Counted from the stretch's first letter, positions 697-16,306 are shown. The stretch is 51,601 nt of DNA from a virus (IMGVR_UViG_2854395284_000002:91638-143238), one strand, 5' to 3'. The notes: generated from the sequence alone by a model not told the origin. Made by a program: numbers and translations.

Positions 697-769
697 ATAA
701 TAACCTCCACTTTTTCATATTTGGTTTTATCTGTGTTATAATACTATTTAAATCTCCGTTTTTTATGTA

Positions 770-963
770 TTATCTTTGTTTTATATATACGTTCTCCATA
801 TTTTCGATCCGTCCACATAGTAAGTTCAATACTAATTTCAATTTTTCCATATCATCATATTCGAACGCCAATATAAGACCTTTAATTGTTTTATTTCTAT
901 ATTCTTCATCATCATATACATTCTGACAAACATGAGCAAATTCTTTCTGCTAACTTTTCGTCA
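770..963 (-). pseudogene. possibly frameshifted small gene (...EKLAERICSCLS/VYDDEEYRNK/TIKGLILAFEYDD...KQR*)
   Basis: Protein-like segments in three frames joined by single-A indels; stop followed by a degenerate junction palindrome at 748. Confidence 0.35.
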
Positions 964-1248
964 TTCGCTTCTTTTTTCCCAGTCATACACCGGAATGTCA
1001 TCAATAACATCTGCGTCTCTATCCATTCGGATCAAGTCAATTCCATTTATCCATGCATACTGAAGTAAGATCCGTAAATCTTTTGGCATATCACTGATGT
1101 TAGTTTCTTTTTGAGCTGGTACACTGATAAAAACACCTTCTTCATATTCATAAGTATATGGTGGCTCCATGGCATTGAGTCCTTCAAACGTTTTCTGTTT
1201 TAAATGTGCCGTGCTAATTTCTAGATATTTTCTTTCATTTGTTTTCAT
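961..1248 (-). CDS. DUF5983-like protein
   Basis: STAHL...YEEG.FI.VP...P.DL..LL.YA...G..LIRMDRDA..I.DIPVYDW pattern. Confidence 0.6.
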   Translation of the reverse strand: MKTNERKYLEISTAHLKQKTFEGLNAMEPPYTYEYEEGVFISVPAQKETNISDMPKDLRILLQYAWINGIDLIRMDRDADVIDDIPVYDWEKRSE

Positions 1249-1301
1249 ATTTTGATTCTCCCTTCTGAAATCCTTGTTTCATTTTTCTATTATTCTCCAA
1301 C

Positions 1302-1336
1302 AAAAAGGAACCATACACTATTTTGTATGATTCCTT
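1302..1336 (-). terminator. probable intrinsic terminator
   Basis: AAGGAA.CATACA / TGTATG.TTCCTT stem with a U-tract on the minus strand. Confidence 0.55.
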
Positions 1337-1360
1337 CGTTAATTTTATTCTGGCAATATT

Positions 1361-1585
1361 TTATAAGTTAATTGGTTCATCATTCTCATCATATTCAATC
1401 GGATAAATCTTCGCTGCATAACCAATATTTTTTAATTTATCATAAATTTCCATTGTAATTGTTTCGCCACCTACTGACCATTCAAGCGAAAATCTACTAT
1501 CATTGTTTTCAATGATTTCAATCAAATGATCTAATAATTCTTCTGTATTACTTGCCCTTTCCTTCTGTTTATCAATATTATTCAT
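1361..1585 (-). CDS. hypothetical protein (74 aa)
   Basis: Start moved to MNNIDK, where the AGAGG RBS lies. Confidence 0.7.
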   Translation of the reverse strand: MNNIDKQKERASNTEELLDHLIEIIENNDSRFSLEWSVGGETITMEIYDKLKNIGYAAKIYPIEYDENDEPINL

Positions 1586-1694
1586 AATCAAACCTCTTTT
1601 CATGAATCAAATTACACCATATACAAAATCGCATGTTATTTGCAGAATAAAGATGTCTTCCACATTTGTTACATCTTTGCCTTATCATAACCAT
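1578..1694 (-). CDS. 38-aa CxxC...CxxC zinc-ribbon microprotein (MVMIRQRCNKCGRHLYSANNMRFCIWCNLIHEKRFDYE)
   Basis: Hand-translated; GGAGG RBS directly after the junction palindrome at 1710; below the ORF-track cutoff. Confidence 0.6.
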   Translation of the reverse strand: MVMIRQRCNKCGRHLYSANNMRFCIWCNLIHEKRFDYE

Positions 1695-1722
1695 AAAATA
1701 GAACCTCCTTGAAATGTGCTTT

Positions 1723-1986
1723 TCATTGTGTTATTCTCGCATATTTTAATGGATATTTCGAAAAATCCAAATATTCAGAATTATATACACTAGGAATAAA
1801 TTTTCTAAAATCATCATAGTACCATGCTTTCCATAATTCTGTTCCGGTCTTTGCAAATTCCCTAGTGGCTTCTTGAAATGCGTCATATAACGTCATGTTA
1901 TATACTTCCATATTTTCTTTTGTTCTTTCTTTTACCTTTTTAGGAACTCTACCAATTATCAAATCATCGTCATAAAACATATTCAT
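1723..1986 (-). CDS. hypothetical protein (87 aa)
   Basis: AGGAG RBS before MNMFY; TGA stop is part of the palindrome at 1710. Confidence 0.7.
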   Translation of the reverse strand: MNMFYDDDLIIGRVPKKVKERTKENMEVYNMTLYDAFQEATREFAKTGTELWKAWYYDDFRKFIPSVYNSEYLDFSKYPLKYARITQ

Positions 1987-2015
1987 ACTCCTTTTTTTAT
2001 GAGAAGTTTTCATTG

Positions 2016-2219
2016 CTATTTTACTTTGTCCAATCCAAATAAAGCATCAGGAAAACTTCTCTTTATTTCTTCAAAATTTTCAAAGCAATCTGCATATCTA
2101 TCTGTGCCATCTTCTATGTTCAATACGAGAAAACTTCTATCTCCATCATTCCATAATGTTCTTGCATCATGTTCTGAAATAATATCAAACCATTTTGAAA
2201 AATATTCTTCTGTAAACAT
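2016..2219 (-). CDS. hypothetical protein (67 aa)
   Basis: ORF with GGAGG RBS. Confidence 0.7.
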   Translation of the reverse strand: MFTEEYFSKWFDIISEHDARTLWNDGDRSFLVLNIEDGTDRYADCFENFEEIKRSFPDALFGLDKVK

Positions 2220-2290
2220 TTCAATTCCTCCAATCTTTTAATTTATTAGTTTATCAAACCCTATCTTATTATTCTCTGTCTTGTTGTACT

Positions 2291-2323
2291 AAAAAAGCAG
2301 ATAACTTTTTCGTCACCTGCTTT
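2291..2323 (-). terminator. probable intrinsic terminator
   Basis: AAAGCAG...CTGCTTT stem plus U-tract. Confidence 0.45.
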
Positions 2324-2474
2324 CCTTAAATATTACGAAACTGCATCTCCGTATCATTTCATAATCTCTACATCCTTTATAATTATCACACATCCAATTA
2401 TAAATCTCTGTATCAGACATATTATGAAATTTTAGAATATGTTTTCTGCATTCATCTAAGATATATCCTTCCAT
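2313..2474 (-). CDS. hypothetical protein (53 aa, MEGYILDECRKH...)
   Basis: Hand-translated, GAGGAG RBS. Confidence 0.6.
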   Translation of the reverse strand: MEGYILDECRKHILKFHNMSDTEIYNWMCDNYKGCRDYEMIRRCSFVIFKESR

Positions 2475-2477
2475 ATT

Positions 2478-2645
2478 TTACTCCTCAATTTCTTCAACAT
2501 CACTTTCATCATAATGAGTATCTGCTATTGGAATACATCTATCAGATTCCAATTTTTCTTCCGCTATTCTAAGTGCTTCAGTTTCATTTTCTGCCTCTAC
2601 TTCATATTCTTCATATGTTGTAAATGTCACACTATACTTCTTCAT
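2478..2645 (-). CDS. hypothetical acidic protein (55 aa, MKKYSVTFTTYEEYEVEAENETEA...), DpnD/PcfM-like pattern
   Basis: Hand-translated, GGAGG RBS. Confidence 0.6.
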   Translation of the reverse strand: MKKYSVTFTTYEEYEVEAENETEALRIAEEKLESDRCIPIADTHYDESDVEEIEE

Positions 2646-2647
2646 AA

Positions 2648-2854
2648 TCATTCCTCCATCATTTCTTTAAATTCTATCCAACTTTCAAAAGACTCTTCCA
2701 ATCCTCTCGATCGAATGGTTTCCATTTCGTCTTCTGTCATTTCATAATTTTTATCTTCACAATATTGTTGGACTGTATCATGCTCTGCTTCTAACCACTT
2801 ATCATCGTCTTCAATTTTATCGACTTCTACTAATAATTTATCAAGTTCATTCAT
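2648..2854 (-). CDS. hypothetical acidic protein (68 aa)
   Basis: GGAGG RBS before MNELDK. Confidence 0.7.
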   Translation of the reverse strand: MNELDKLLVEVDKIEDDDKWLEAEHDTVQQYCEDKNYEMTEDEMETIRSRGLEESFESWIEFKEMMEE

Positions 2855-2948
2855 AGTAGTCAACCTCCAATTCATGTCAACAATCAATAAAGAAAATCGT
2901 TCCGTTAAATATTTATTCTCTCTTTTTTTAATGAAATTTCCGTTTCAA

Positions 2949-3101
2949 TTATATTCCAAACGCCATAAATACAATCGCACACAGCAGCATACCAAATGCT
3001 GTAAGTGCTAAAGCTCCTTTAATTGTCAAGTTAACTCTTGACATATGGCTTCCCATGTACCAACATGTCAAACTAATTAATGCACATGTAATTCCTCTCA
3101 T
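2949..3101 (-). CDS. small membrane protein (50 aa)
   Basis: Hand-translated hydrophobic ORF; stop lies just upstream of the palindrome at 2932. Confidence 0.55.
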   Translation of the reverse strand: MRGITCALISLTCWYMGSHMSRVNLTIKGALALTAFGMLLCAIVFMAFGI

Positions 3102-3229
3102 TTTTTATCTCCTTTGTTCTTAAATATTTTGTCATAAACTTCTTTATAGAATTGAATATCCTGTGCTGTTGCTCTTTTTACTTTCTCTATACAATTTTGT
3201 AAAAAAGCCAAACTTTCTTCCTTATTCAA
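3098..3229 (-). CDS. hypothetical protein (43 aa, TTG start)
   Basis: GGAGG RBS after the palindrome at 3242; ATGA overlap with the next gene. Confidence 0.55.
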   Translation of the reverse strand: MNKEESLAFLQNCIEKVKRATAQDIQFYKEVYDKIFKNKGDKK

Positions 3230-3258
3230 ATGTTTTCCTCCTGATACTTTCCGTTTCA

Positions 3259-3573
3259 TTACAACTCATAATCTCTGCATAAATCCAACACTGTATCAAT
3301 AATATTCTGTACGGAATCAATTCCATACCCGCTTAACATATCGAACGAAACATTGTCAGATGCGTATACTAAATCACAATAATGACACCACCCATCTTCT
3401 TCGTTATTAACAAATGTAATCTCAAGATTCACTTCGTTTGTTAATGGATATTGCCAAGCTCTGTCATCAAATGATATTGGTCTATTTCCATTTCCGCTCC
3501 ACATTTCAGGGTTCATCTGATTAAAAAAATTTTTTACAATTTTTTCTGCCGTTTCTCTTTTCATTATCATCAC
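3259..3573 (-). CDS. hypothetical protein (about 100 aa)
   Basis: ORF bounded by palindromes on both sides. Confidence 0.75.
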   Translation of the reverse strand: MMIMKRETAEKIVKNFFNQMNPEMWSGNGNRPISFDDRAWQYPLTNEVNLEITFVNNEEDGWCHYCDLVYASDNVSFDMLSGYGIDSVQNIIDTVLDLCRDYEL

Positions 3574-3600
3574 TCCTAATTTTGAATTTTCTATTTCATT

Positions 3601-3795
3601 CTAATAAAAACATAAGACACCATCATATAAGTCCGGTGTAAATTCCTCAATTCCCCATCGTGTAATATCTAATGGCAATCCTAAAGTTTCTAATAATTCT
3701 TTTCTTTGACATTTCATTTTTTCAAATGCATCGTTTTCATTATCTGCATAGACAACACATCCGAAATTCTCTTGTGCTAAATAAAATACTTTCAT
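3601..3795 (-). CDS. hypothetical protein (64 aa)
   Basis: GGAGG RBS before MKVFY. Confidence 0.7.
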   Translation of the reverse strand: MKVFYLAQENFGCVVYADNENDAFEKMKCQRKELLETLGLPLDITRWGIEEFTPDLYDGVLCFY

Positions 3796-3822
3796 ATTGC
3801 TTTCCTCCACATAAATTTGTTT

Positions 3823-4161
3823 TCATAGATTTATTTTATCCTTGCATAAGTTATAAATAATTCCTCGTAGATCTTCAATTTCTGTTTCCGAAAGATATTC
3901 GCTTCTGTTAGTCTCCGGAATGTCATAAATATTACAACTATCATTTTCAAACCATATTTCAAAAATATAATACCATATTCCATTATCACAATTGTATTCA
4001 CAGTGGATAAAATATGAATTTCCATCTTTATCAATCAACTCTCCATCACCAATGTCCAATGCAAAAGAAGTATCATCATTCCAATATGAATTGCATTTGA
4101 ATTTTCTTCCATTTCCCCAATCTATTTCATAAAGGAGATTTTCGGTTTCTATATATTTCAT
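3823..4161 (-). CDS. hypothetical acidic protein (112 aa)
   Basis: AGGAG RBS; bounded by palindromes. Confidence 0.75.
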   Translation of the reverse strand: MKYIETENLLYEIDWGNGRKFKCNSYWNDDTSFALDIGDGELIDKDGNSYFIHCEYNCDNGIWYYIFEIWFENDSCNIYDIPETNRSEYLSETEIEDLRGIIYNLCKDKINL

Positions 4162-4192
4162 TTCTATCACTCCTAATTTTGAAATCTACGTT

Positions 4193-4411
4193 TCATTTAG
4201 CTGCTTCTATTACAATGGTAGAATCTTGTGTTGTGATATACTTTATTTTCATATCAAGAATACGATCCAATGGTTTATTAAAACCGTCTCTTTTTGTGCA
4301 AAAAATCAATTCTGCTCCATCACCATATTGCTTTCCGTCTGAGCAATCATAAATATCATAATTACAATTACAATCAAAATCATCATTATAAACTAAATCG
4401 CCAACAACCAT
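4193..4411 (-). CDS. hypothetical protein (72 aa)
   Basis: GGAGG RBS; TGA stop inside the palindrome. Confidence 0.7.
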   Translation of the reverse strand: MVVGDLVYNDDFDCNCNYDIYDCSDGKQYGDGAELIFCTKRDGFNKPLDRILDMKIKYITTQDSTIVIEAAK

Positions 4412-4617
4412 TCTTGTATCCTCCGATCATCAATTTCTTGTTTCTCTTTTTCGTGGATCTGTTCAAGCTCTTCATAAGTTACAGTTCGAGAATTATAACC
4501 TATACTTCTATAATATTTGGTATAATGATTTGCATTCTCTCTATCACAGCTTGTACATGTTTTTATAAATCCAGTATGCTTTTCTGTTGCAATCACGCAG
4601 ACAACATTATCTTCCAT
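4393..4617 (-). CDS. hypothetical protein (74 aa)
   Basis: GAGG RBS. Confidence 0.65.
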   Translation of the reverse strand: MEDNVVCVIATEKHTGFIKTCTSCDRENANHYTKYYRSIGYNSRTVTYEELEQIHEKEKQEIDDRRIQEWLLAI

Positions 4618-4675
4618 AATTGTTTCCTCTCTTTTCTCTTTCCGTTTTCGTTTCTGAAATCATCGTTTCTTATGG

Positions 4676-4963
4676 CTAAATAAATTCTTCAACATATCCC
4701 ATCGCTAATACATCTTGCATATAATTATAAAAATTTCTAGTTACAATTATTTTTTCAGGCGAATAAATAATATGTCTTTCATCGTATAATCTGTTTAGAA
4801 TTTCAATTTCTTCTTCATCCATTTTTGAATAGCTCCATCCTTGACATGCATTTTTTATTGAATAGTCTATATACGGATATAATCTAAGTTCCTTTTGTGA
4901 AATTGTTCTATCCAAGAATGCCACCGCTTTTTCTTGAATGCTATCTGTTAGTATTCCTCTCAT
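4676..4963 (-). CDS. hypothetical protein (95 aa)
   Basis: AGAGG RBS; bounded by palindromes. Confidence 0.7.
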   Translation of the reverse strand: MRGILTDSIQEKAVAFLDRTISQKELRLYPYIDYSIKNACQGWSYSKMDEEEIEILNRLYDERHIIYSPEKIIVTRNFYNYMQDVLAMGYVEEFI

Positions 4964-4991
4964 ATAAAAACCTCTCTTTCCTAGTAAATCC

Positions 4992-5894
4992 TCATTTCAT
5001 TGTCTCAATTTTTATTAATGGTTTTATTCTTCTCCTACCAACATTTTTCCCTTGTCGTTTAAGTAACGATAAAGTTTTATTATATGTTTCAACATCTATA
5101 ATTGGCTCAAAATTTCCTTTATAAGTTTCTCCACAAAAAATATTGTACCCACAATATTGTGTTCGTGTAAGAATTTTTTGAACACTATAAGCTGTTGGAA
5201 CTTTGCCTCTCTTACCTTTAAATCCTCTTTCTCTTGCTTCTTTCGCAACTTCTGATAAATTTTTTCTTAACGAATACTCAGAAAAACAAAAACGCACATA
5301 TTCTGCTTCTTTTTTATTGATTTTAAATGAATCCTTTCCATCTAAATCATATCCTAATATTTCAGAACAAGTACGTTTTCCTTGTGCGGCTCTCTCTGCC
5401 ATAGCTGCACTAACTCTTTCACTTGTTAATTCTCTTTCTAGCTGTGCGAATACACCAACAATGCCAATCATTGCTCTACCCATTGGAGTAGATGTATCAA
5501 AAGCTTCAGTATATGAAACCATAGATATATTCCATTGTTGGAATTTTTCCATTGTCGAATATAAATCCGATACACTTCTTGTAAATCTACTAAGTGCCCA
5601 AAATAAAACTAAATCAAATTTCCCATTTTTTGCATCATATAATAATCTATTTATATCTGGTCTATGTTCAATATCCTTCCCTGAAATTCCTTTGTCTGCA
5701 TACAAATCATAAACATTATATTTCCGTTCCTCACACCATTTCCTAAGCGTTTTTTCTTGTGCATCTAAAGAATATCCTTCACGGGCTTGATCGAGTGTGC
5801 TTACACGTATATATATTGCTACTTCTTCAATTGGGACTAATATCGTTTTCTTAAAAACCATTTCCGTTGTAATTGCGTAATATTTCTTTTTCAT
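4992..5894 (-). CDS. serine recombinase (resolvase catalytic domain plus recombinase domain, no C-terminal zinc ribbon)
   Basis: AIYIRVST catalytic motif, SRFTRS, GIVGVFAQLERELTSER, LGYD, and L..RG..GKRG...T..SV..IL...QYCG...EPIID. Confidence 0.9.
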   Translation of the reverse strand: MKKKYYAITTEMVFKKTILVPIEEVAIYIRVSTLDQAREGYSLDAQEKTLRKWCEERKYNVYDLYADKGISGKDIEHRPDINRLLYDAKNGKFDLVLFWALSRFTRSVSDLYSTMEKFQQWNISMVSYTEAFDTSTPMGRAMIGIVGVFAQLERELTSERVSAAMAERAAQGKRTCSEILGYDLDGKDSFKINKKEAEYVRFCFSEYSLRKNLSEVAKEARERGFKGKRGKVPTAYSVQKILTRTQYCGYNIFCGETYKGNFEPIIDVETYNKTLSLLKRQGKNVGRRRIKPLIKIETMK

Positions 5895-5899
5895 AAAAA

Positions 5900-6053
5900 C
5901 TATCTCCTTTCCTGAAATTCATATACAGAAAATACTTTTCTCTTCTTTTCAGTTACAAGGATTTTCCGCAATTTTCACTGCCTGTTCCTTTGTTTTTGCG
6001 TCTACAGATATACCTAATTCTTCATTTTCAAAACCAACACACCATGTTTTCAT
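5900..6053 (-). pseudogene. small gene with a +1 frameshift in an A-run (MKTWCVGFENEELG...KIAE/ILVTEKKRKVFSVYEFQERR*)
   Basis: 154 nt from ATG (with RBS) to TAG; removing one A of GAAAAT restores a 50-aa ORF. Confidence 0.5.
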
Positions 6054-6082
6054 ATTATTTTCTCCTTTGAAATTGCTATTTC

Positions 6083-6427
6083 TTAACAATAAAGCTCCCA
6101 TCCTTTTCTTTGACTTCCAAGTTTCCGTTCAATTACAATACTTTCACCTTCACCTATTAAATATCCTTCTCTGCAAATTTCTGTATCTCCTAAACGAATC
6201 CATGGATAAATATAAAATTGCGTGATCTCTTTATAATTTGATAGATCATCTTTAAATCCATTTTCTCTGTTTTCTTTCAAGCATTCCTTCCAGATCTTTT
6301 CAAATTCAGTTCTACATTTCCGCTTAGACATTCGATTTGACTTAGTAACCTCATTTCCAGCATAATAATAACCACCTTCTGCTGGTTCATAAATCGGATA
6401 TTCTGAATAAAATGTTAGATATCTCAT
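6083..6427 (-). CDS. hypothetical protein (114 aa, YEPAEGGYY motif)
   Basis: ORF with RBS. Confidence 0.75.
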   Translation of the reverse strand: MRYLTFYSEYPIYEPAEGGYYYAGNEVTKSNRMSKRKCRTEFEKIWKECLKENRENGFKDDLSNYKEITQFYIYPWIRLGDTEICREGYLIGEGESIVIERKLGSQRKGWELYC

Positions 6428-6450
6428 ATTATTTTCCTTCTCTCACACAA

Positions 6451-6648
6451 TCATTCTGCTTCTATTTCCATCAGATCCGCAAATCCGCCATCGTAATTCT
6501 GTTTCCACGACCTATAAACTCCGTTTGTATCACGAAACTCTAAGTAATACGCTTCTCTCCATTCCCACGGCTCCTGCCATACAATCTCTTTAATTGTACA
6601 TACAATTCCTTGGCAATGAACTACATCACCTGGTCTTAAATCTCTCAT
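6451..6648 (-). CDS. hypothetical protein (65 aa)
   Basis: AGGAG RBS before MRDLRPGD. Confidence 0.7.
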   Translation of the reverse strand: MRDLRPGDVVHCQGIVCTIKEIVWQEPWEWREAYYLEFRDTNGVYRSWKQNYDGGFADLMEIEAE

Positions 6649-6676
6649 TTTCTTTACTCCTTTTAAAATCTTAGTT

Positions 6677-6871
6677 TCAACCGATACTGTCATATCCTGT
6701 TTCAATTACCCTATTTCCATATTCATCTTCCAAATCATATCCTCTGTATGATTTTCCAATCACTTTAACTTTTGTTCCTTTTTCGAAATAGCCTGCACAA
6801 CTATCAACCTTTTTTATTGTAGTTGCCCAATCACCAATTTCAAACCCGTTTTTATTTTTTACATATGTCAT
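6677..6871 (-). CDS. small beta-rich (SH3/KOW-like) protein (64 aa)
   Basis: FEIGD...FEKGTKVKVIG pattern. Confidence 0.6.
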   Translation of the reverse strand: MTYVKNKNGFEIGDWATTIKKVDSCAGYFEKGTKVKVIGKSYRGYDLEDEYGNRVIETGYDSIG

Positions 6872-6904
6872 ATCTTTATCGTCCTTTCTGTTGAAATGCG
6901 AGTT

Positions 6905-7510
6905 TTAAACGCCCATTGTTCCGTCAAAATAATCATTTACACCTTCAAAATAATCTTCATTTGATTGTTCTTGATGAATAAGTTTCTGTGTCTCTGCAAT
7001 TTTAATATTCCCACATTTAATCAATGAAACAAAATCCTCTGTATAATAATCGGCACTATTTGCAACACTGTCATCTGATTCAACAGGTATAAGAACAATT
7101 TTGTAGTTCTGTTTAATTTCTCTATTCCATCTTTCTTCCACCTTGCATAATGTGTCTTTAAATTCGTTTCCATTTAAGAAAAATCCAAAACCACATCTTA
7201 TATTCAACGGAGCAATAAATCGCACGTTTTCAACCCCGTCGGTCATGATAGCTTGGCATAAATCATCTGAAGTAATCCGTTCTCCATTTTCAATTTTCTC
7301 TTTTAATTCTTTCATAGAGATCTTAATCCAATCATTGAGATAAATTGTGTTGCGATTCCAAGTAAAGAATTTTCCATTTTCATCTTCTCTGATTGTACGA
7401 TCATATGATTTTTGTGTTTTTGTATCTTCAACTGATACTTCATTATGAAAATCATCATTCCATACAAACACTCTAATTATTTCATTTCCACACTTATATT
7501 TATAAAACAT
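6905..7510 (-). CDS. hypothetical protein (201 aa)
   Basis: GGAGG RBS. Confidence 0.75.
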   Translation of the reverse strand: MFYKYKCGNEIIRVFVWNDDFHNEVSVEDTKTQKSYDRTIREDENGKFFTWNRNTIYLNDWIKISMKELKEKIENGERITSDDLCQAIMTDGVENVRFIAPLNIRCGFGFFLNGNEFKDTLCKVEERWNREIKQNYKIVLIPVESDDSVANSADYYTEDFVSLIKCGNIKIAETQKLIHQEQSNEDYFEGVNDYFDGTMGV

Positions 7511-7559
7511 GTCTATTTTCCTCCATTTTCATATGTCATCGTAAATGCGAATTTCTTGT

Positions 7560-7739
7560 TTATATATTATAATAATTTAATATCATCTGAAATGAATCAC
7601 TACTTACATATTCTGCAATATCCTTTTCATGTCTTCTTATTCTTTTTTCTAATAATTCTCTATTTTCAGGATGTGTTTGTAAAAATTCTTTATCTTGTTT
7701 ATATCTTGCTACAAGATGCTTCAATGTTACTCTTTCCAT
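7560..7739 (-). CDS. hypothetical protein (59 aa, MERVTLKHLVARYKQDKEFL...)
   Basis: Hand-translated; bounded by palindromes at 7541 and 7764. Confidence 0.6.
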   Translation of the reverse strand: MERVTLKHLVARYKQDKEFLQTHPENRELLEKRIRRHEKDIAEYVSSDSFQMILNYYNI

Positions 7740-7782
7740 ATTTATTCACATTATCCTTTCTAATGAAACACGCATTTTAATA

Positions 7783-8132: not shown

Positions 8133-8339
8133 TTATACATCCATTTCAATTCCAAACTCTTCATGCAACAGTTTTTCAAATTCCGGATCTCTCTTCACGT
8201 ATTCATCGAGGAATTCTTCTTCACTACATGGCGCAAGATCGAAATGCACATCTTCTCGAATATCATCATTCATATATGTGACGATTGCGTCCCAAAGATT
8301 TTTGTCTAAATCTAATTTTTCTCCATACCGTAACATCAC
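8133..8339 (-). CDS. AcrIC5-like anti-CRISPR candidate (68 aa)
   Basis: WDAIVTYMNDDIREDVH......EEEFLDEYV matches the remembered AcrIC5 pattern FDAAVNLMDAELREELH......DQEFLDAYV. Confidence 0.6.
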   Translation of the reverse strand: MMLRYGEKLDLDKNLWDAIVTYMNDDIREDVHFDLAPCSEEEFLDEYVKRDPEFEKLLHEEFGIEMDV

Positions 8340-8355: not shown

Positions 8356-8386
8356 AAAAATGAGGAACAAGATTTCTCTTGTCCCT
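8356..8386 (-). terminator. probable intrinsic terminator
   Basis: AGG.ACAAGA / TCTTGT.CCT stem plus U-tract. Confidence 0.45.
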
Positions 8387-8389
8387 TTA

Positions 8390-8563
8390 TTATTCTCTTT
8401 TTAAATTCGGACATAATCCAAGACCACCATCAATTTCTGGTAGCCTTCTATATGCATCTCTGTGAATACAATTTTCTCTTTTGCATTCCGGACAGTAACA
8501 TTTGATGTATTCTTCGTAACTCATTTTATAATTTGTTGTCGCAAACCATTCTCTTGTTGGCAT
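8390..8563 (-). CDS. Cys-rich microprotein (57 aa, C.C..C....C.HRDAYRRLPEIDGGLGLCP)
   Basis: Hand-translated, GAGG RBS. Confidence 0.6.
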   Translation of the reverse strand: MPTREWFATTNYKMSYEEYIKCYCPECKRENCIHRDAYRRLPEIDGGLGLCPNLKRE

Positions 8564-8896: not shown

Positions 8897-8899
8897 CTT

Positions 8900-9094: not shown

Positions 9095-9162
9095 ATTTTT
9101 ATTCCTTTCTATTTATACATTTCTCCATCTTTTGTTCTTGAAAATCGTTCTTTCAACTGGTT

Positions 9163-9786
9163 TTATATAACTTCTTTCCAATCAACCACCTGCTTATATC
9201 CGTCTGCCTGTAAGATGTGAATTTCTTCATCCTTGTCAAGCTCATATCTGTTTTTGAAAAATTCTTTTAACCCCTCTTCTCTTTCTGCTCTCCACAATTC
9301 ATCATGAGTGATTATATCTCCAAAATTTTCCTCATCAGTTGTTACGGTAATATCAGAAATCTTTCCAAAATACATTGCTTCAAGTAAATCTGTATCCACA
9401 TCTCCCTTGACAATGTAATCTTGCCAATCACCTTGACAATAACCTCTAATTGTTCCGTCTTTAAAAGCATCTTCTGGATAAAGCAATCGTAATACATCAA
9501 CTATAATATCTTCTGTACATCTGCATTTATCGTAAAGCTCCTTTAATTTTGCATTTACTTCTTCGGATGTATATTCAGGATATAATTCATAACAATCAAT
9601 ATCCTCTATTACTTCTTTTGCCTTTTGATACCATTCGGCATCTGTATATTTCTTACAATTTCCATTACCAGTAAGAACCACCTGTTCATCAAAATTGTCA
9701 CACCCACAATAATCTTTCCACACATCATTATCATTGTATAACCACCATGTTCCATCGCCGGTGTTGTCAATTCTAATTTCTACCAT
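9163..9786 (-). CDS. phage-type hypothetical protein (RGYCQGDW motif)
   Basis: 207-aa ORF, GGAGG RBS. Confidence 0.75.
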   Translation of the reverse strand: MVEIRIDNTGDGTWWLYNDNDVWKDYCGCDNFDEQVVLTGNGNCKKYTDAEWYQKAKEVIEDIDCYELYPEYTSEEVNAKLKELYDKCRCTEDIIVDVLRLLYPEDAFKDGTIRGYCQGDWQDYIVKGDVDTDLLEAMYFGKISDITVTTDEENFGDIITHDELWRAEREEGLKEFFKNRYELDKDEEIHILQADGYKQVVDWKEVI

Positions 9787-9801
9787 TCCGTTCTACCTCC
9801 A

Positions 9802-10980
9802 TTATGCTGTCTTATTCATCTCAATATATTTTGCAATTCTCTTTTCAGCTTTAACCTTTACATCTTTAATATTAACTGGCAGAATCAAGAAGCTATATGT
9901 ATCTCCCTTAATAATCCACGGGCAAACCTCTTTTGTCCCATAGAAAATCGGGTATTCAGAATCTACGATACTCATTACATCCACAAGAAAATTTGGATTA
10001 AAGCCAATATAAAAATCTTTTTCTGGTTTCTCTTTGACTTCGATTTCATCAAAAGCTTCATATCTCGTTGTACTTGCATACGAGTATAAATTTCCATTTT
10101 CTGCATGAAATGTAACTGGCAATTTCGATTCTTTCAAAATGTCTGCGTCGTACTTCATTGCCTCTAATAGCTCTTTTGCATTTGCAGTAAATTTATAATC
10201 CCATTCATCCGACAACATCTGATTTACTTTGAAGTATTCACCATCAATTCTTTTTGTAATATATGTAAAGTTTTCACTTTCTACTTTTACATACTTATCG
10301 TTCTGAGAAATAATGACTTTCCTTTCTGATTTTTTGTCCAATAATTTCTTAAACACTGGAACACATCTGCAATGCAGTTTTACTGTTTCAAACGGATTTT
10401 CTGTTTCTTTAAAAGTCATATCGTCTTCTAACTGTCGCATTCCGATCATACAGTTCCACAATGCTTCTACACGTTTCTCTTTTGTATTAAAATTGAACAC
10501 GCTCATCATCCGATTAACTTCTTCTCTATTTGCCACAAATACTGACAAATTAGAAATTGTTTCAGATAACCAGTTTTCTTTTACATCCAGAATGTTTTCT
10601 CCGTTATCTAATACCGGAAGAGAAACATCTGTATTTTCAAATCGTGGAATAGAAACATTTTTCTTGCCACACTTGATATTGATTTTCTCTTCTTTATCTG
10701 ATGTGATATCTTCTATGGTAATTTCTCCTGACATTTTTGAAATAATTTTAATATCTTCAATGTCGATTCCGAACATACCAGGTTCTGTATGGTACGTATT
10801 TTCTGTTCTTACTTCAACATAATGCTCAATATCTGTACTAAGAATTTTTAAAATTCCCTTATCGTCAATCGAGAAATATAATCTTTTAAGGCTCGGAACA
10901 GATGCTTTTTTATTTACTACCGTCATTGCTTTATCCATCATGGTTTTGAGTTCTTTTGCGTTCATCGTAAATTTGATCAT
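9802..10980 (-). CDS. dnaN: DNA polymerase III beta sliding-clamp homologue
   Basis: 392 aa; IKFTMNAKEL..MMDKA..VV.K....P.L....F......L.I.STD.E N-terminus, RIDGEY, IGFNP.FL.D, FLILPV C-terminus. Confidence 0.8.
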   Translation of the reverse strand: MIKFTMNAKELKTMMDKAMTVVNKKASVPSLKRLYFSIDDKGILKILSTDIEHYVEVRTENTYHTEPGMFGIDIEDIKIISKMSGEITIEDITSDKEEKINIKCGKKNVSIPRFENTDVSLPVLDNGENILDVKENWLSETISNLSVFVANREEVNRMMSVFNFNTKEKRVEALWNCMIGMRQLEDDMTFKETENPFETVKLHCRCVPVFKKLLDKKSERKVIISQNDKYVKVESENFTYITKRIDGEYFKVNQMLSDEWDYKFTANAKELLEAMKYDADILKESKLPVTFHAENGNLYSYASTTRYEAFDEIEVKEKPEKDFYIGFNPNFLVDVMSIVDSEYPIFYGTKEVCPWIIKGDTYSFLILPVNIKDVKVKAEKRIAKYIEMNKTA

Positions 10981-10981
10981 A

Positions 10982-11209
10982 TTATTTTACCTCCACTGTA
11001 TTATATTTTTCTACGAGATATCTTAATTCATTTCTTTCTTTTCTCAATCTCTCAACATGTCTTGATAATTTCTTATTTCCTTCTAATAACGCTCGATTGT
11101 TATTGCGAAGCGATTTGTTTGAAATTTTGATTCTAGTATTTTCATTTTCTAATTGAGAAATATAAAGTTTCGCCTCTTCTAATTCCATTTTATATTCATC
11201 AATACTCAT
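10982..11209 (-). CDS. coiled-coil protein (75 aa)
   Basis: Heptad pattern. Confidence 0.65.
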   Translation of the reverse strand: MSIDEYKMELEEAKLYISQLENENTRIKISNKSLRNNNRALLEGNKKLSRHVERLRKERNELRYLVEKYNTVEVK

Positions 11210-11224
11210 TTTTCTTCACCTTTC

Positions 11225-11974
11225 TTATGCTATCTTTTCCCATTCAATGTGTGTATTTTTTCTATGTGCTTCTTTTGATACAATGAGGATATCTCCTTTA
11301 TAATATCTAAACATTATATCTTCTAAATGCGGTCTTGCTAAAATGTTCTGTTTAATTTTTGCAATTTCTCTTCCACCGTGTTCAGCTTCATATTTTTCCA
11401 GTACCCATTCTAAATCCTCATAGAAATCTAACAATGCACATTTAACTGATCGTTTATAATTCTCTTCCATGATCTCATGCATTCTTTTTTCAGCAGCTTC
11501 ATATGTCTCAAAAACTTCATCTGGATATCTGTCATTATGACTTCCATAGCACTGCGTCCATGCAGGATATTTCTTTCTCAATCTATATGTATCGTGATTA
11601 AATTCTGGTTCAATAATTGGTTCTACATTTTCCATTTTGACAAGATAACCATTATCAAATAACCACTGAAGATCCGATGGACATGTAAAATATCTACCTT
11701 TCATTGCTGCATTGATTTTTTCTTTTTTATCAAGGTTTTCTGTTACGGTATATAAATCAGTGCTATATGTCCATCCTTTAGGAACTTTTTTAAATTCCGT
11801 TTCTGACTGAAAATCATCAAATGGAACTCCATTTATTAGTCTTATTTCTGGTGGTCTTAACCGTGATACCTTATGTCCACCATACGTTTTTTCATATTCG
11901 TACATTCCATACGAAACATATAATTTCCCGTTAAATCCTCTTTCAACATAATAACAAACCTGATTGTGTTTCAT
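11225..11974 (-). CDS. hypothetical protein (249 aa)
   Basis: AGGAG RBS. Confidence 0.75.
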   Translation of the reverse strand: MKHNQVCYYVERGFNGKLYVSYGMYEYEKTYGGHKVSRLRPPEIRLINGVPFDDFQSETEFKKVPKGWTYSTDLYTVTENLDKKEKINAAMKGRYFTCPSDLQWLFDNGYLVKMENVEPIIEPEFNHDTYRLRKKYPAWTQCYGSHNDRYPDEVFETYEAAEKRMHEIMEENYKRSVKCALLDFYEDLEWVLEKYEAEHGGREIAKIKQNILARPHLEDIMFRYYKGDILIVSKEAHRKNTHIEWEKIA

Positions 11975-11989
11975 TGCTTTTTATCTCCT

Positions 11990-12271
11990 TTACATATTTT
12001 TTAATTCTTCATCTGAATACTTAAGCCACTTGCCAGTTTGGATATTATTCATCCGTTCTGTAAAAGTTCTCTTTCGCATCTCATACATTTCCGTTGCAAT
12101 TCTATACATGTCGTAGACTACATTTTTTTCAATGTCAATGATCATGAACTTATGAGGATCATATGTGTCTAATACATATTGCATAAAGTCTCTAAACACA
12201 ATCAACCTATTTGTAGTACACCAGGTGATTGTTTTGTCTTTTTCTTTTGTTACAAATTTTACATTTTGCAT
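11990..12271 (-). CDS. hypothetical protein (93 aa)
   Basis: AGGAG RBS before MQNVKF. Confidence 0.7.
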   Translation of the reverse strand: MQNVKFVTKEKDKTITWCTTNRLIVFRDFMQYVLDTYDPHKFMIIDIEKNVVYDMYRIATEMYEMRKRTFTERMNNIQTGKWLKYSDEELKNM

Positions 12272-12346
12272 TTTTCTCCTTCCTAATAAATAAGACAGAT
12301 ACATTTCTGCATCTGCCTTATTATTCTCTGTAAAACATATTATTTA

Positions 12347-12610
12347 TTAGCATTCAATTATTTCCCATGTCCATTCGTATTCTCCATCATAAGATGAAAG
12401 ATCTGCTGTTCCATCATCATTTATTGTAAAATCAATTTTATCTCTATCTTTTTTACTTGCATTATTCATTTCTTCCTCATAAGTATTTTGTGCATCTTTT
12501 TCAAGAAATGCATACGCATCATCCTCATTATCAAATGAATCATGGCTTGCAATTTCCTTTTCGTGTACAGAATAACAAATCACTACATATTTTTTCATAA
12601 AAACTACCAT
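12347..12610 (-). CDS. hypothetical acidic protein (about 85 aa)
   Basis: ORF in array. Confidence 0.7.
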   Translation of the reverse strand: MVVFMKKYVVICYSVHEKEIASHDSFDNEDDAYAFLEKDAQNTYEEEMNNASKKDRDKIDFTINDDGTADLSSYDGEYEWTWEIIEC

Positions 12611-12663
12611 CCTTTCTTAAATTGAAACTAATATTTCATTCATGTTTTTATCTAGCTTTCGCT

Positions 12664-12858
12664 TCAGCAAGCTATGAATTCCAAGTTACCCAAGCACTCG
12701 TTTTTCTGTTTCATTTCCAACGCTTTGCTCATAGCATAGTGATAACACTCTGCTTCTGTATCAAAGAAGTTATCTCCATCAAATTCTATTTTACGTTTTA
12801 TGGATTTGATAGAACTTTCTAAGTCCATAACATCGTATTTTGCTTCAAATATCCACAT
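12664..12858 (-). CDS. hypothetical protein (64 aa)
   Basis: ORF in array. Confidence 0.65.
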   Translation of the reverse strand: MWIFEAKYDVMDLESSIKSIKRKIEFDGDNFFDTEAECYHYAMSKALEMKQKNECLGNLEFIAC

Positions 12859-12885
12859 GATAATTCTTCCTTCTAAATTGCACTC

Positions 12886-13125
12886 CTATCTACTCCATTT
12901 ACCAACCTTATTTCCGTTGATATCCATAATTGTTCCGCTTGTTTCTCCATATTCGAGCTTTTCACAAATCTCTTTTAAGATTCTTTTAAGTTCCAATGCC
13001 TCATCCATATTATTCTCTTCTCCTGTATATGGATCACAAAATGCTGCATTTCCTGTTTTGATTTCACATTTAAACATAACTTTCGCTCCCTTCCAATCCA
13101 AGTACATAACAATCTCTCTTACCAT
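12886..13125 (-). CDS. phage-type hypothetical protein (NAAF...RIL...LE.G...G.IMDINGNKVG.W)
   Basis: ORF in array; true start may be MFKCE. Confidence 0.7.
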   Translation of the reverse strand: MVREIVMYLDWKGAKVMFKCEIKTGNAAFCDPYTGEENNMDEALELKRILKEICEKLEYGETSGTIMDINGNKVGKWSR

Positions 13126-13153
13126 TCCAGAAATACGATTTCAAATCTGCATA

Positions 13154-13339
13154 TCAATCACTAATCCTTTCTCTCCACTTTTTAATTCGCACAGGGTAAG
13201 TTACGTTTTCTCTGTATGTTTTCAATTGTGCTTTTGCATCTGCTCTATCTTCACAATTACACTCAATATCCCATCCATAACCACAATTTCCTTCGATTGC
13301 ATAACAATCTTTCGTCTTTCTCTTATATGTCATAATCAA
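13154..13339 (-). CDS. phage-type hypothetical protein (GYGWD...A..QLKTYREN)
   Basis: ORF in array. Confidence 0.7.
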   Translation of the reverse strand: MIMTYKRKTKDCYAIEGNCGYGWDIECNCEDRADAKAQLKTYRENVTYPVRIKKWRERISD

Positions 13340-13740
13340 TATACCTCTTCATAAAATTTAATTGTTCCTTCCTTTTCAGCTTTATATTTCGCTTTATCAG
13401 TAAATAATGTGAGATAAATATCTCCCTCACAATATGTAAATACCGCCATCTGTTCATCTGAATAAGCGTAAGAGCTATAACCATTTACCTGCACTAAATC
13501 GAATTTGCATTTCTTTGCGAACTGATAGCTCAAATCAGACATCCAATGTCCACTCAACATATAGTTTCCATTTCTATCTTCTGTCTCTTCCATGAAGTTT
13601 ACGTTCGCAATCCGTTTTGTATCTTCGTTCAATGGATACACTGACAAATCTAAATCGGCAATGTCATATTCTTCTTTATCTGGGATTCTTCCAGTTTCTC
13701 TAATCATCTGATAGTATTTGTTTCTTGGTATATATTTCAT
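13336..13740 (-). CDS. hypothetical protein (134 aa)
   Basis: TAATG coupling to the upstream gene places the start at 13740. Confidence 0.7.
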   Translation of the reverse strand: MKYIPRNKYYQMIRETGRIPDKEEYDIADLDLSVYPLNEDTKRIANVNFMEETEDRNGNYMLSGHWMSDLSYQFAKKCKFDLVQVNGYSSYAYSDEQMAVFTYCEGDIYLTLFTDKAKYKAEKEGTIKFYEEVY

Positions 13741-14183
13741 TATTTCATCCTCACTTTCATCATTTCTTTTCTGTATTCTTTTATCTGTTCCAAAGTCAAC
13801 CATTCCGGTTTCTCTTCCAGTGAGTTCCAAATCCGTTCCATTTCGTCACAAATTGCTTCTACACTGCCACCCCACAGATGACCTTCATAACCGTTTCCAT
13901 TTCCGAAGAAATAGTTACAATCACTTCTCATTCTGTCTAATAACATGTAATCCTTTTCTCTTGGATGACGAACAAAAGGATCATCGCATTCAACTGGTTC
14001 TGTTACTCTATTACATGGCTCACCACAGATTTCATCCCATTCGGTTCTATAAGCACCTGTGTAGAGATTAAGTCCGTTTTCTCCATTGTTCTCGTCAAAA
14101 TACAACTTCCCATTTTCATCTTCGTAGCATGGAACTTCCATGTATCCACCAAACCCAACATATTTTACTTTCATACTTTTCAA
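13740..14183 (-). CDS. LPD11-domain protein
   Basis: YMLLDRMRSDCNYFFGNGN....HLWGGSVE....EM...WNSL.EKPEWLT.E.I..Y motif. Confidence 0.7.
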   Translation of the reverse strand: MKSMKVKYVGFGGYMEVPCYEDENGKLYFDENNGENGLNLYTGAYRTEWDEICGEPCNRVTEPVECDDPFVRHPREKDYMLLDRMRSDCNYFFGNGNGYEGHLWGGSVEAICDEMERIWNSLEEKPEWLTLEQIKEYRKEMMKVRMK

Positions 14184-14192
14184 CCTGCCTTT

Positions 14193-14403
14193 CTATCCGA
14201 TCCACTGTTTTGTTACTGTGTCATAAATCGCCCCGTTTGCATCCTGATATTCTTTGTATCTGGAATATGTAAACCGTAAACATTTATGACCGTTCGCATA
14301 AACAATGGTCTTATTTCCATTATCAATGGCAAATCTTTCACGCCATCCGGCTGCTTCCCATGCTTTTTTTCATTTCGCCTTTAAATTTTCTTTCCTTTTC
14401 CAT
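14193..14403 (-). pseudogene. gene with a +1 frameshift in an A7 run (MEKERKFKGEMKK/AWEAAGWRERF...TKQWIG*)
   Basis: 211 nt from RBS-linked ATG to TAG; A6 instead of A7 gives a 69-aa ORF. Confidence 0.55.
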
Positions 14404-14405
14404 TT

Positions 14406-14660
14406 TTATACCTCCTGTTTTCTCTTCATAATCCCATTTGCCGCCTGAACACATCCGTATAACCAACCATTCAGGTAATCAATGTTGTAGCAATACTGCG
14501 TCCAATCTCCGTTTTTTGCCCTTTCTTCACTGGTAAAAACATAAAATCCACCCCCATAATCAGCATCTTCAATTTTAATAAAGTCGAAGTTTGCCTTATA
14601 AGACCGCAAGTTATCTTTAATAATTTCTTCCTGACGTTTTGTCATCTTCTTTTTCTCCAA
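14406..14660 (-). CDS. hypothetical protein (YLNGWLYGCVQ motif)
   Basis: ORF in array. Confidence 0.7.
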   Translation of the reverse strand: MEKKKMTKRQEEIIKDNLRSYKANFDFIKIEDADYGGGFYVFTSEERAKNGDWTQYCYNIDYLNGWLYGCVQAANGIMKRKQEV

Positions 14661-14666
14661 TTAAAT

Positions 14667-14700
14667 AAGGCAGCTAGGTATTTATTCTCCTAACTGCCTT
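14667..14700. terminator. hairpin, probable terminator
   Basis: AAGGCAG.TAGG / CCTA.CTGCCTT stem. Confidence 0.5.
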
Positions 14701-14732
14701 TGATTTGCGTTATCTTGTTTAGTTGCTAAACC

Positions 14733-15017
14733 TTACAGATATTCTGCAAAAACCTGAAGGTCAAATTTATTGCTTAACTTTTCAATGGTCATATCTTTGA
14801 GTTCCTTTGCAAGTGATAATTCATTTGCATTGTAAGCCCATTCTATTTTACACCCATTTGGTGTTGCAGGGAATTTTACTTCTACACAAATTTCATTTCC
14901 ATAGTCCGTAACTTCTGTTACTGTACCAAAGAAACTTTTATGAAATCGTACACCATATTCTTCTTCGTACTTTGTATCTGGATTAGATACATATACTAAA
15001 TCACCAACTTTAAACAT
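14733..15017 (-). CDS. SH3/KOW-like hypothetical protein (94 aa)
   Basis: MFKVGDLVYV...GTVTEV pattern. Confidence 0.65.
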   Translation of the reverse strand: MFKVGDLVYVSNPDTKYEEEYGVRFHKSFFGTVTEVTDYGNEICVEVKFPATPNGCKIEWAYNANELSLAKELKDMTIEKLSNKFDLQVFAEYL

Positions 15018-15049
15018 TTGCCTTCACTCCTTTTCTTGAAATCTTAATT

Positions 15050-15355
15050 TCATTGGGTTATGTTATCAAAAAAATCTAATATCTTCGTTTTTTCATAATA
15101 CTGTTTCCAGTTACCGCTTAAAGTTACGCCTATACAAGTACACGGATCTGTATTATGACTTTTCGGTATCTGAAAAACGGCAATACATTCATCGTCAGTA
15201 ACAGTCATATCCGAAAATATCAACTTTTCTAAGCTACATTTTGTTGCGCAGTTTTCTTTTACACCTGTACAAATTCTGTCATACTCCGACTTACACTCAT
15301 CAAAAGATTTTCCTTTAATCACAACAGAATGATTTAAAACTTTAATTTCTGTCAT
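15050..15355 (-). CDS. hypothetical protein (101 aa)
   Basis: Bounded by palindromes. Confidence 0.7.
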   Translation of the reverse strand: MTEIKVLNHSVVIKGKSFDECKSEYDRICTGVKENCATKCSLEKLIFSDMTVTDDECIAVFQIPKSHNTDPCTCIGVTLSGNWKQYYEKTKILDFFDNITQ

Positions 15356-15391
15356 ACAATTATACCTTTCCTATGAAACACGTATTTCTAA

Positions 15392-15922
15392 CTACTTGCT
15401 AATATAAATTCTTACTGAGTTTTCGTCATCAAATGCCTTTATGACATCATCTTCCGTTTCTAAGAATGTATAATTGATTCTGTATCTAATTCTTGCATTA
15501 CTATAAAGTTTCTTGTAGAAATAATCGTCAAACTCCTTCATTGTCATTTCCGTTGGCTTGTCATTTTCAAATACTGTCACACCATCAATTCTATTGAATG
15601 ACACATATTTTCCAGAATGAATTAACTCATCGTAAGTAACTGACTTTTTCAGCATTCTCAACAAGTGCATTCCATAATCATAATAAGTACAATATCTACT
15701 TCCGATTTTCAAGTCAAAGCCCTCTGATTCTTTGGATGGTTTACTATCATTTTTGAATCCTTCTGCAAACTTGATAAAATCTTCTTTTGTATAAATTTTC
15801 CCTTGCCAATCATCGTTTTTTCTGCCTTCATTGTCATTGTTACAACCTTGTAAACTCAGATGTAAAATTCTCCCATCTGATAAGTTCACAATTTTTGTTT
15901 TAAAGATAATACCATATCCCAT
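15392..15922 (-). CDS. hypothetical protein (176 aa)
   Basis: Bounded by palindromes. Confidence 0.75.
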   Translation of the reverse strand: MGYGIIFKTKIVNLSDGRILHLSLQGCNNDNEGRKNDDWQGKIYTKEDFIKFAEGFKNDSKPSKESEGFDLKIGSRYCTYYDYGMHLLRMLKKSVTYDELIHSGKYVSFNRIDGVTVFENDKPTEMTMKEFDDYFYKKLYSNARIRYRINYTFLETEDDVIKAFDDENSVRIYISK

Positions 15923-15986
15923 ATAATCACCATTTGTCTTTCTGATCTTCCTATGAAATGTTGCTTTCTTACACTAAGCTACAATT

Positions 15987-16214
15987 TTAGTAACTTTTAA
16001 TTGAACCATCTGCGTTTACATGCCATTTTTCAGATGGTCTAAAGTTCTTTCCGTTGTTGATATGCAAAATCCATATGTCACCCTTCGGACAAAACCAATT
16101 AGCATGTTCCATCCGATGCTCCATACATTCTTCAAAAGAAGAAAATATATCTACAACTTCACCGCTTCTTTCGCTTGTTTCAACATATATTGCATAAAAA
16201 TCAAACTTAACCAT
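15987..16214 (-). CDS. hypothetical protein (75 aa)
   Basis: GGGAG RBS after the palindrome at 16227. Confidence 0.7.
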   Translation of the reverse strand: MVKFDFYAIYVETSERSGEVVDIFSSFEECMEHRMEHANWFCPKGDIWILHINNGKNFRPSEKWHVNADGSIKSY

Positions 16215-16306
16215 TATTCTCCCTTCTGAAATTTCTCTTTCATCCGATGAATCCATAGAAACAACCAAAAACTTTTTCTGGTTTATGAATAGTTACTGTG
16301 CGAATA

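Follow-up and report, generated by a model that had tools for sequence, protein, structure and literature searches.

A recurrent palindrome at the unit borders of a phage early region, possibly a distributed operator array

What does one short symmetric sequence do at the borders of so many small and unrelated phage genes? The question is raised by IMGVR_UViG_2854395284_000002:91638-143238, a 51.6-kb stretch (51,601 nt, hereafter the window) that forms the final portion of a virus record of 143 kb. Between its small early genes, a 16-nt palindrome, TGAAAY-N4-RTTTCA with the core GAAA-N6-TTTC, recurs in about 20 copies. An initial annotation of the window had offered three models for these palindromes: recombination sites of an integron-like system, a distributed operator or roadblock array for one dimeric regulator, and a signal for RNA processing or translation control. 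The motif is real, intergenic, specific to the phage, restricted to its early arms and conserved across the phage family. Tentatively, with a probability of roughly 40%, the palindromes are read here as a distributed operator or roadblock array for one symmetric dimeric phage protein.

Eight copies match the consensus exactly (starting at 1266, 2932, 4180, 4655, 6068, 12623, 15037 and 15374), against 0.25 in shuffled sequence. The remaining sites, most of which the initial annotation had placed under a single formula, are less regular: seven carry one mismatch (1710, 3583, 6664, 6892, 7764, 15954 and 16227), two carry two mismatches (4984 and 7541), and three are degenerate or differ by one nucleotide in length (3242, 9139 and 13129). 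GAAA-N6-TTTC occurs 14 times in the window, whereas other spacings occur one to eight times, and a scan with a weight matrix returned about 18 sites, all inside 748-16242. Placement was counted in this region (1,978 nt intergenic and 13,517 nt coding) for TGAAA-N6-TTTCA at no more than one mismatch. Fifteen of the 18 sites found in this way are intergenic and three are coding, which amounts to an approximately 34-fold higher density between genes than within them; 1,000 shuffles of the gaps gave a mean of 0.14 sites and a maximum of two. The recurrence at gene junctions that had been reported at the outset therefore stands, and the motif is not equally frequent in coding sequences or in shuffled gaps. 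The copies are as follows, from the start of the array onward:

16227-16242, minus strand: first copy of the array, sense sequence TGAAAGAGAAATTTCA; the ATG of gene 16214-15987 follows 12 nt later; no copy lies further upstream to 28.5 kb
15954-15969, minus strand: copy with one arm mismatch, AGAAAGCAACATTTCA
15374-15389, minus strand: copy at which relatives retain the upstream flank and the motif and then carry another gene; homology breaks at 15373
15037-15052, minus strand: copy whose TGA is the stop of gene 15355-15050; breakpoint at 15054
12623-12638, minus strand: copy TGAAATATTAGTTTCA; the identical 16-mer lies between several unrelated flanks in relatives (8-9 flank combinations)
9139-9154, minus strand: degenerate copy with a 1-nt insertion; relatives have it intact, with the core GAAAGAACGATTTC; the junction is broken in 11 of 12 covered relatives
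7764-7779, minus strand: copy TAAAATGCGTGTTTCA, immediately past the stop of gene 8130-7783
6892-6907, minus strand: copy with one mismatch
6664-6679, minus strand: copy whose TGA is the stop of gene 6871-6677; breakpoint at 6678
6068-6083, minus strand: copy AGAAATAGCAATTTCA; its core 14-mer precedes four different genes in four phages
4984-4999, minus strand: copy with two mismatches, past the serine recombinase gene
4655-4670, minus strand: copy adjoining the upstream stop; the next ATG is 37 nt away
4180-4195, minus strand: copy whose TGA is the stop of gene 4411-4193
3583-3598, minus strand: copy with one mismatch; its ribosome-binding site (RBS) flank is common to the 4180 copy
2932-2947, minus strand: copy adjoining the upstream stop; the next start is about 75 nt away
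1710-1725, minus strand: copy whose TGA is the stop of gene 1980-1723
1266-1281, minus strand: copy whose RBS flank is common to the 16227 copy

Read on the sense strand, a unit runs from stop codon to motif to Shine-Dalgarno (SD) sequence to ATG. The motif starts between 3 nt before and 8 nt after the upstream stop, and its own TGA is that stop codon at four window sites (1723, 4193, 6677 and 15050); at 3823, which had been counted as a fifth, the motif is only degenerate. Among the 16 window sites read from the printed sequences, the RBS lies 0-10 nt past the motif end in 14, and the distance from motif end to ATG is 12-25 nt. The earlier statement that the next RBS usually follows is borne out by these sites, with the exception of 2932 and 4655, which adjoin the upstream stop and not an RBS. 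The motif is not a rule for every junction: it is absent from about ten gaps of at least 27 nt, and closely coupled genes leave no space for it. The conserved element measures 16-18 bp, with conservation reaching only one flanking base beyond the palindrome, and two pairs of longer shared flanks noted earlier (3569/4166 and 1255/16216) are both exact.

The window is the early arm of an SPbeta-like temperate phage of about 200 kb with a Lachnospiraceae host. From position 1 to about 120 kb, the contig is phage DNA of 32% G+C with nearly all genes on the minus strand, and this part encodes NrdD, an NAD-dependent ligase, the PolIII alpha subunit, RecJ, DnaB, Nampt and a P-type ATPase. The best matches of the PolIII alpha subunit are uncultured human-gut phages, followed by phiCD211, c-st, Geobacillus E3 and the Lactococcus 949 group. 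At window position 28504, homology with all related phages ends. Complete relatives measure 200-216 kb and carry a late block on the plus strand that begins with genes for a helicase and a protein of 857-877 aa; this protein is RdRP-like by Pfam in one relative and is read as the YonO-type polymerase of SPbeta-like phages. Human, pig and mouse gut samples and wastewater commonly contain phages of this kind, whose hosts include Fusicatenibacter and Butyribacter (hits name Fusicatenibacter saccharivorans and Butyribacter intestini). Their early arm contains dozens of small genes without known function, including at least one member of an anti-CRISPR family.

Further copies of the motif precede ribosome-binding sites in the remainder of the same phage. 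Four complete relatives hold 41-44 cores each, compared with 10-17 for a control word, and in one complete relative the intergenic copies near start codons all lie in minus-strand early arms, whereas the copies in the late block are in-gene only. About 40 more distant relatives were found via XRE-ParB, a protein encoded at the head of the array, which in them is only 36-53% identical. Downstream of the XRE-ParB gene, these relatives still have 3-6 cores within 10 kb, compared with 0.3-1 for control spacings; the 10 kb preceding the gene hold 0-2 cores. In a 2.2-Mb host-like Lachnospiraceae genome, five exact copies are present, three or four of them within open reading frames (ORFs), and a host signal is thereby ruled out. 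Because the signal recurs in relatives and is rare in the host-like genome, it belongs to the phage family and not to the host. Scans of the element, a host-like genome and related elements, a check that had been suggested at the outset, thus show a phage-specific motif.

Whether the symmetry is read in DNA or in RNA can be addressed from the variation among copies. No covariation is found at arm positions 6/11 or in the centre (14 pairs seen, 17 expected), and the mismatches at the sixth arm position, previously taken as an argument against a hairpin, are real. Each half favours a pyrimidine on its own strand, which is the behaviour of two independent half-sites. Left-arm G-to-A and right-arm C-to-T variants are both found and argue for a duplex-DNA symmetry rather than RNA compensation. 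As isolated hairpins, the sites yield 0 to -2.1 kcal/mol and five of 16 have no fold at all; in the context of the mRNA, the pairing probability of the arms is below 0.2 at most sites. The motif does not behave as a free RNA hairpin. Its stem sequence is conserved while its loop is free, and the 5-N6-5 half-site geometry is that of the 434 repressor and CRP operators, which are bound by helix-turn-helix (HTH) dimers. Together, the missing covariation, the negligible hairpin, the conserved stem with its free loop and the half-site geometry favour a symmetric protein on double-stranded DNA.

In the operator reading, the half-sites (A/T)TGAAAY, one helical turn apart, would bind a symmetric dimer on double-stranded DNA at translation-unit borders in a long early operon of small accessory or anti-defence genes. 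The bound protein would block or throttle transcription arriving from the upstream block of toxin-antitoxin and XRE-ParB genes, and the array would be silent in the lysogen or switched off on schedule. Because one short sequence recurs at many junctions, the motif also acts as a preferred joint at which short-homology recombination exchanges cassettes between related phages. Protein binding, the identity of the reader and a repressive effect are what we infer. Among the initial models, that of one dimeric regulator is the best supported, by the half-sites, the free centre, the lack of covariation, the negligible hairpin energy and the 5-N6-5 geometry; XRE-ParB, proposed as a protein to test, is not supported as the regulator. 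One conserved site at unit boundaries offers a handle on both block switching and content exchange; identifying its reader would reveal a regulator common to the family or, with lower probability, a recombinase, and exchangeable anti-defence cassettes in metagenomes can be delimited with the motif as a practical marker.

Several points weigh against an operator array. Between 16.3 and 28.5 kb there are no sites except two chance in-gene matches, and no copy overlaps the predicted early promoter near 24.7 kb, unlike what is found in systems that combine an operator with stoperators. The motif is unchanged where XRE-ParB is only 36-53% identical and has a different recognition helix, whereas immunity operators usually diverge. 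Placement tight against the SD sequence and the stop codon suits an RNA-level operator at least equally well.

The proteins that come into question as readers, or that characterize the array, include the following:

18228-19343, minus strand: XRE HTH protein with a ParB-like DUF6551 domain (XRE-ParB), encoded at the array head; all relatives found by querying with it carry it
16939-17208, minus strand: basic 89-aa HicA-RNase-like protein; matches a gene marked HicA_toxin (weak) in the relative L038
4992-5894, minus strand: 300-aa serine recombinase with Resolvase and Recombinase domains, an optional cassette in the array; absent from the relative G004
8133-8339, minus strand: 68-aa anti-CRISPR candidate of the AcrIC5 family (PF22147, E = 2e-10)

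XRE-ParB is disfavoured as the reader, since its recognition helices vary (ESTISNYE, QNAISHYE, KSSIQKYE, YSTISKYE and others) among phages in which the motif is constant. A search of genome contigs with XRE-ParB returned one metagenome-assembled genome only. The HicA-like gene stands at the array head in many relatives, and in the distant relatives L036-L038 a HicA-type toxin gene directly follows XRE-ParB. XRE-ParB may be the partner or antitoxin of the HicA-like RNase, an arrangement of which we know no description. Upstream of XRE-ParB, a toxin-antitoxin pair (20622-21268) consists of a Gp49/HigB-type toxin gene (20906-21268) followed by a gene for a 93-aa XRE-type HTH protein (20622-20903), and this pair is kept in the relative L035. 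The 133-aa protein encoded after XRE-ParB is conserved and strongly acidic, and it is an unlikely DNA binder. In some relatives, a DUF3825 protein is encoded on the opposite strand near XRE-ParB. A Pfam search of thirty small array proteins found no HTH domain.

Two recombinases were also considered. The serine recombinase, which the initial annotation had proposed to test for binding, is rejected as the enzyme of the array: it is an optional cassette, missing from one relative, and the geometry of the sites is wrong for such an enzyme. A Xer-like tyrosine recombinase of 346 aa (contig 88362-89402), with the catalytic residues R, K, H, R, H and Y intact, is encoded on the array strand about 20 kb downstream of XRE-ParB and is syntenic in 10 of 10 complete relatives examined. 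Its identity between clades with the same motif is 25-27%, and it may simply be the integrase. Among close relatives it is 97-99% conserved, though the surrounding array is mosaic, and it lies beside a C5 cytosine methyltransferase (contig 87339-89402; L005:7339-9402).

By its predicted family, the AcrIC5 candidate marks the array as probable anti-defence or accessory cargo. In L035, a gene for an 80-aa HTH_3 protein immediately precedes the AcrIC5 homologue, as for an Aca-type regulator. Close by, a Cys-rich 57-aa protein (8390-8563), probably zinc-binding, has homologues of 76% identity in 17 of the 40 distant loci; its gene is among the most widely shared of the array, and a terminator-like hairpin follows it (8363-8386).

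An operator at the RNA level is unlikely but is the rival that survives best. A phage protein would bind or cut at the motif, immediately 5' of the SD sequence in the early mRNA, and so control how each unit is translated or how stable it is. Candidates for this protein are a translational repressor like RegA of T4, an Aca2-type HTH protein that reads the repeat as both DNA and RNA, and the HicA-like RNase. The distances speak for such an operator, with the motif end 0-10 nt from the SD sequence in 14 of 16 sites and 12-25 nt from the ATG, and the motif start -3 to +8 nt from the upstream stop. The HicA-like gene that heads the array in many relatives and the AcrIC5-family gene, with an HTH gene directly before it in one of them, are consistent with it as well. 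The hairpin is nevertheless energetically negligible and absent at five of 16 sites, covariation is missing, and a left-arm G-to-A change would disrupt the closing pair. Recognition of hairpins by proteins usually shows the reverse of this conserved stem and free loop, and the copies at 2932 and 4655 are distant from any SD sequence. From the third of the initial models, the plain hairpin is thus disfavoured and a protein-dependent RNA operator is retained as a rival to the operator on DNA.

The mosaic structure of the array bears on explanations that invoke recombination. When 18 IMG/VR loci and contigs of related phages sampled from mouse, pig and wastewater were compared with the window, recurrent breakpoints were found at motif edges (15373, 15054, 13146, 12640, 9142-9162 and 6678) and also at motif-free junctions (10978, 9801, 11991, 8570 and 8140). 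Identical 14- to 16-mers, with the same centre, recur in unrelated surroundings on both sides. The 14-mer GAAAGAACGATTTC joins two upstream flanks to two downstream flanks in all four combinations; TGAAATATTAGTTTCA occurs in 8-9 flank combinations, and the core GAAATAGCAATTTC precedes four different genes in four phages. In a tally limited to junctions covered by at least three relatives, in which the cases are not independent events, all eight motif junctions were broken in at least one relative (44 of 59 covered cases, 75%), compared with 12 of 14 motif-free junctions (58 of 131 cases, 44%). RBS-region 14-mers also act as recombination islands. In one relative, the gene for a DNA sliding clamp is gone by a clean 1194-bp deletion, and both junctions of this deletion carry the RBS micro-homology TGGAGGTA. 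This clamp gene (window 9802-10980), with three beta-clamp domains at weak Pfam scores, is present in some relatives only. Because motif-free junctions break too, the motif is a favoured but not an obligatory joint, and this pattern resembles the cassettes of promoter-early stem-loops (PeSLs) in T4-type phages (PMC2839356) rather than a dedicated integron. A secondary role as a recombination joint is documented by these comparisons.

A rather improbable alternative takes the palindromes as cassette-exchange sites, that is, minimal core sites with 7-bp arms and a 4-6-bp crossover for the Xer-like tyrosine recombinase. Equal centres would recombine between co-infecting relatives, and the differing centres within one genome would prevent deletions. 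It would account for homology among relatives that stops exactly at motif edges, for the 14- to 16-mers with their centres within unrelated flanks in up to 8-9 combinations, and for breakage of 75% at motif junctions against 44% elsewhere. An intact-residue recombinase that is syntenic in all ten complete relatives examined and an RBS-ORF-stop-site layout that is that of an integron also favour it. Exchange is not tied to the motif, however, as 12 of 14 motif-free junctions are broken, among them those of the clamp deletion at an RBS micro-homology, and RBS-region 14-mers are likewise recombination islands. Known Xer, Cre and attC sites have far longer arms, the recombinase has only 25-27% identity between phages with the same motif and may be no more than the integrase, and no circle or excision joints are seen in the contigs, which cannot show rare ones. 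In its boldest form, which we regard as a long shot, the array would be a natural system of recombinase-mediated cassette exchange whose arms bind the tyrosine recombinase and whose variable 4-6-nt centre is the address. Only matching junctions of co-infecting phages would then recombine, so that anti-defence cassettes would be swapped and the array kept; such an array would be a phage counterpart of heterospecific lox sites and the integron idea invented a second time.

It is about equally improbable that the motif is a linker without a dedicated reader, which travels with exchangeable cassettes and is kept for micro-homology at gene borders. This is a classical idea in phage modular evolution, and it agrees with cassettes and motifs that are highly identical among phages with core proteins of about 50% identity, and with exchange at every type of junction. 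Micro-homology requires no dyad symmetry, though, and palindromic arms at a fixed 6-nt spacing, the same on many centres, point to a symmetric partner.

A promoter for a phage RNA polymerase or a modified host polymerase before each unit is very improbable: the motif stands at unit starts and the family encodes a YonO-like single-subunit RNA polymerase, but there is no space for a start site and leader before the SD sequence, the site is symmetric, sigma-70-like hexamers are not enriched, and the YonO-like gene stands first in the opposite, late block, which has the motif within genes only. A sigma-70 promoter or a terminator was also rejected (promoter-like sites 90 versus 97.5 expected; no T run), and antisense promoters via plus-strand TTGAAA are not consistent (two sites, judged by eye).

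The statement that no described system has such a layout was too strong, as stoperators, PeSLs and the SPBRE are described relatives of the idea. In Cluster A mycobacteriophages, stoperators are 20-30 copies of a short site, mainly in short intergenic gaps and not at promoters, that are read by one phage protein (the L5 gp71-type repressor) and block transcription elongation (PMC6550527, PMC9283540). The stoperator site is a 13-bp asymmetric sequence, oriented with transcription and read by a monomer; the true operator lies at the early promoter, and the sites co-vary with the repressor between heteroimmune phages (PMC6550527, PMC9283540). The motif described here resembles them in its many copies within intergenic gaps of transcribed DNA. 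It differs in being palindromic rather than asymmetric and oriented, in having no intergenic copy in 16.3-28.5 kb, including the promoter-like site near 24.7 kb, and in staying constant in about 40 relatives despite differing recognition helices of XRE-ParB.

The SPBRE is a 15-bp element in about ten promoter regions of the Bacillus prophage SPbeta that is read by a single master regulator, MrpR/YopR (PMC10516654). MrpR has a tyrosine-recombinase fold with three of seven catalytic residues (structure 8A0A; PMC10516654). The two phages share a broad lineage, a YonO-type polymerase, a large temperate genome and a short repeat in intergenic DNA of the early region. Unlike MrpR, the Xer-like recombinase retains six of seven catalytic residues, and when this protein was compared with the sequences of solved structures (E up to 1), no MrpR chain was returned. 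Moreover, the sites here lie between stop codon and RBS inside one operon and not in promoter regions. The PeSLs of T4-type phages combine a strong sigma-70 promoter with a working terminator hairpin and flank small non-essential genes in hyperplastic regions, where the insertions, deletions and replacements that separate close relatives end in the motifs (PMC2839356, PMC4122927). Recombination between elements shuffles the genes of the early array here as well. The 16-mer, in contrast, has no sigma-70 promoter (90 found, 97.5 expected) and no terminator (0 to -2.1 kcal/mol, no T run).

Integron attC sites are imperfect palindromes of 57-141 bp that fold as single strands and have R and L boxes and extrahelical bases, and an integron is headed by an IntI gene with attI and Pc. 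Like an integron, the array consists of promoterless RBS-ORF-stop-site units served by one upstream promoter, with small accessory cargo that varies between relatives. The conserved element measures 16-18 bp, however, no GTTRRRY box is seen, and the head of the array is XRE-ParB with small genes, the Xer-like recombinase lying about 20 kb downstream. As first put forward, the integron-like model is not supported: gain, loss and reordering of genes do end at palindrome edges, the outcome that the initial annotation had named in its favour, but attC anatomy is lacking and motif-free junctions break as well (12 of 14, beside 8 of 8 with the motif). In Cluster K mycobacteriophages, SAS/ESAS is a conserved asymmetric element that overlaps the RBS at a fixed short distance before many starts, and Aca2-type regulators are HTH dimers that bind an inverted repeat beside the RBS as DNA and RNA and control anti-defence genes, with one site per operon. 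The motif likewise stands at a short distance before many start codons; it is symmetric where SAS is asymmetric, and it occurs in about twenty copies where an Aca site occurs once. The array is thus a variant among the dispersed regulatory repeat arrays of phage early regions, failing at least one defining feature of stoperators, SPBRE and PeSLs, and it is distinguished by four traits: it is palindromic, absent from the promoter, constant across a diverse family and tied to the boundaries of anti-defence-type units.

Further upstream, a G+C-rich stretch on the minus strand (24135-24751) has no ORF, and lies behind the promoter-like site that heads the early operon. A word of about 20 nt (GTGGCGCTCAAGTCGC...) occurs three times in this stretch, which could act as a leader or antitermination RNA. 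No complementarity to the palindrome was seen in the hairpin-rich leader (24.1-24.8 kb), an Rfam search of window 1-29000 gave no match, and near-identity searches of phage and plasmid collections gave none either.

Past the end of phage homology at 28504, the window looks like a conjugative transposon (28505-51601) set into the phage between its early and late blocks. The array thus sits in the phage early arm, downstream of the toxin-antitoxin and XRE-ParB block. A Tn916-type integrase (28688-29941) points toward the 28504 junction. Beyond it, the 28505-51601 segment, which has 46-52% G+C, carries FtsX/ABC transporter and sensor-kinase genes, a relaxase, a topoisomerase and a CHAP protein, and it also encodes a 1290-aa ArdA/ArdC polyprotein.

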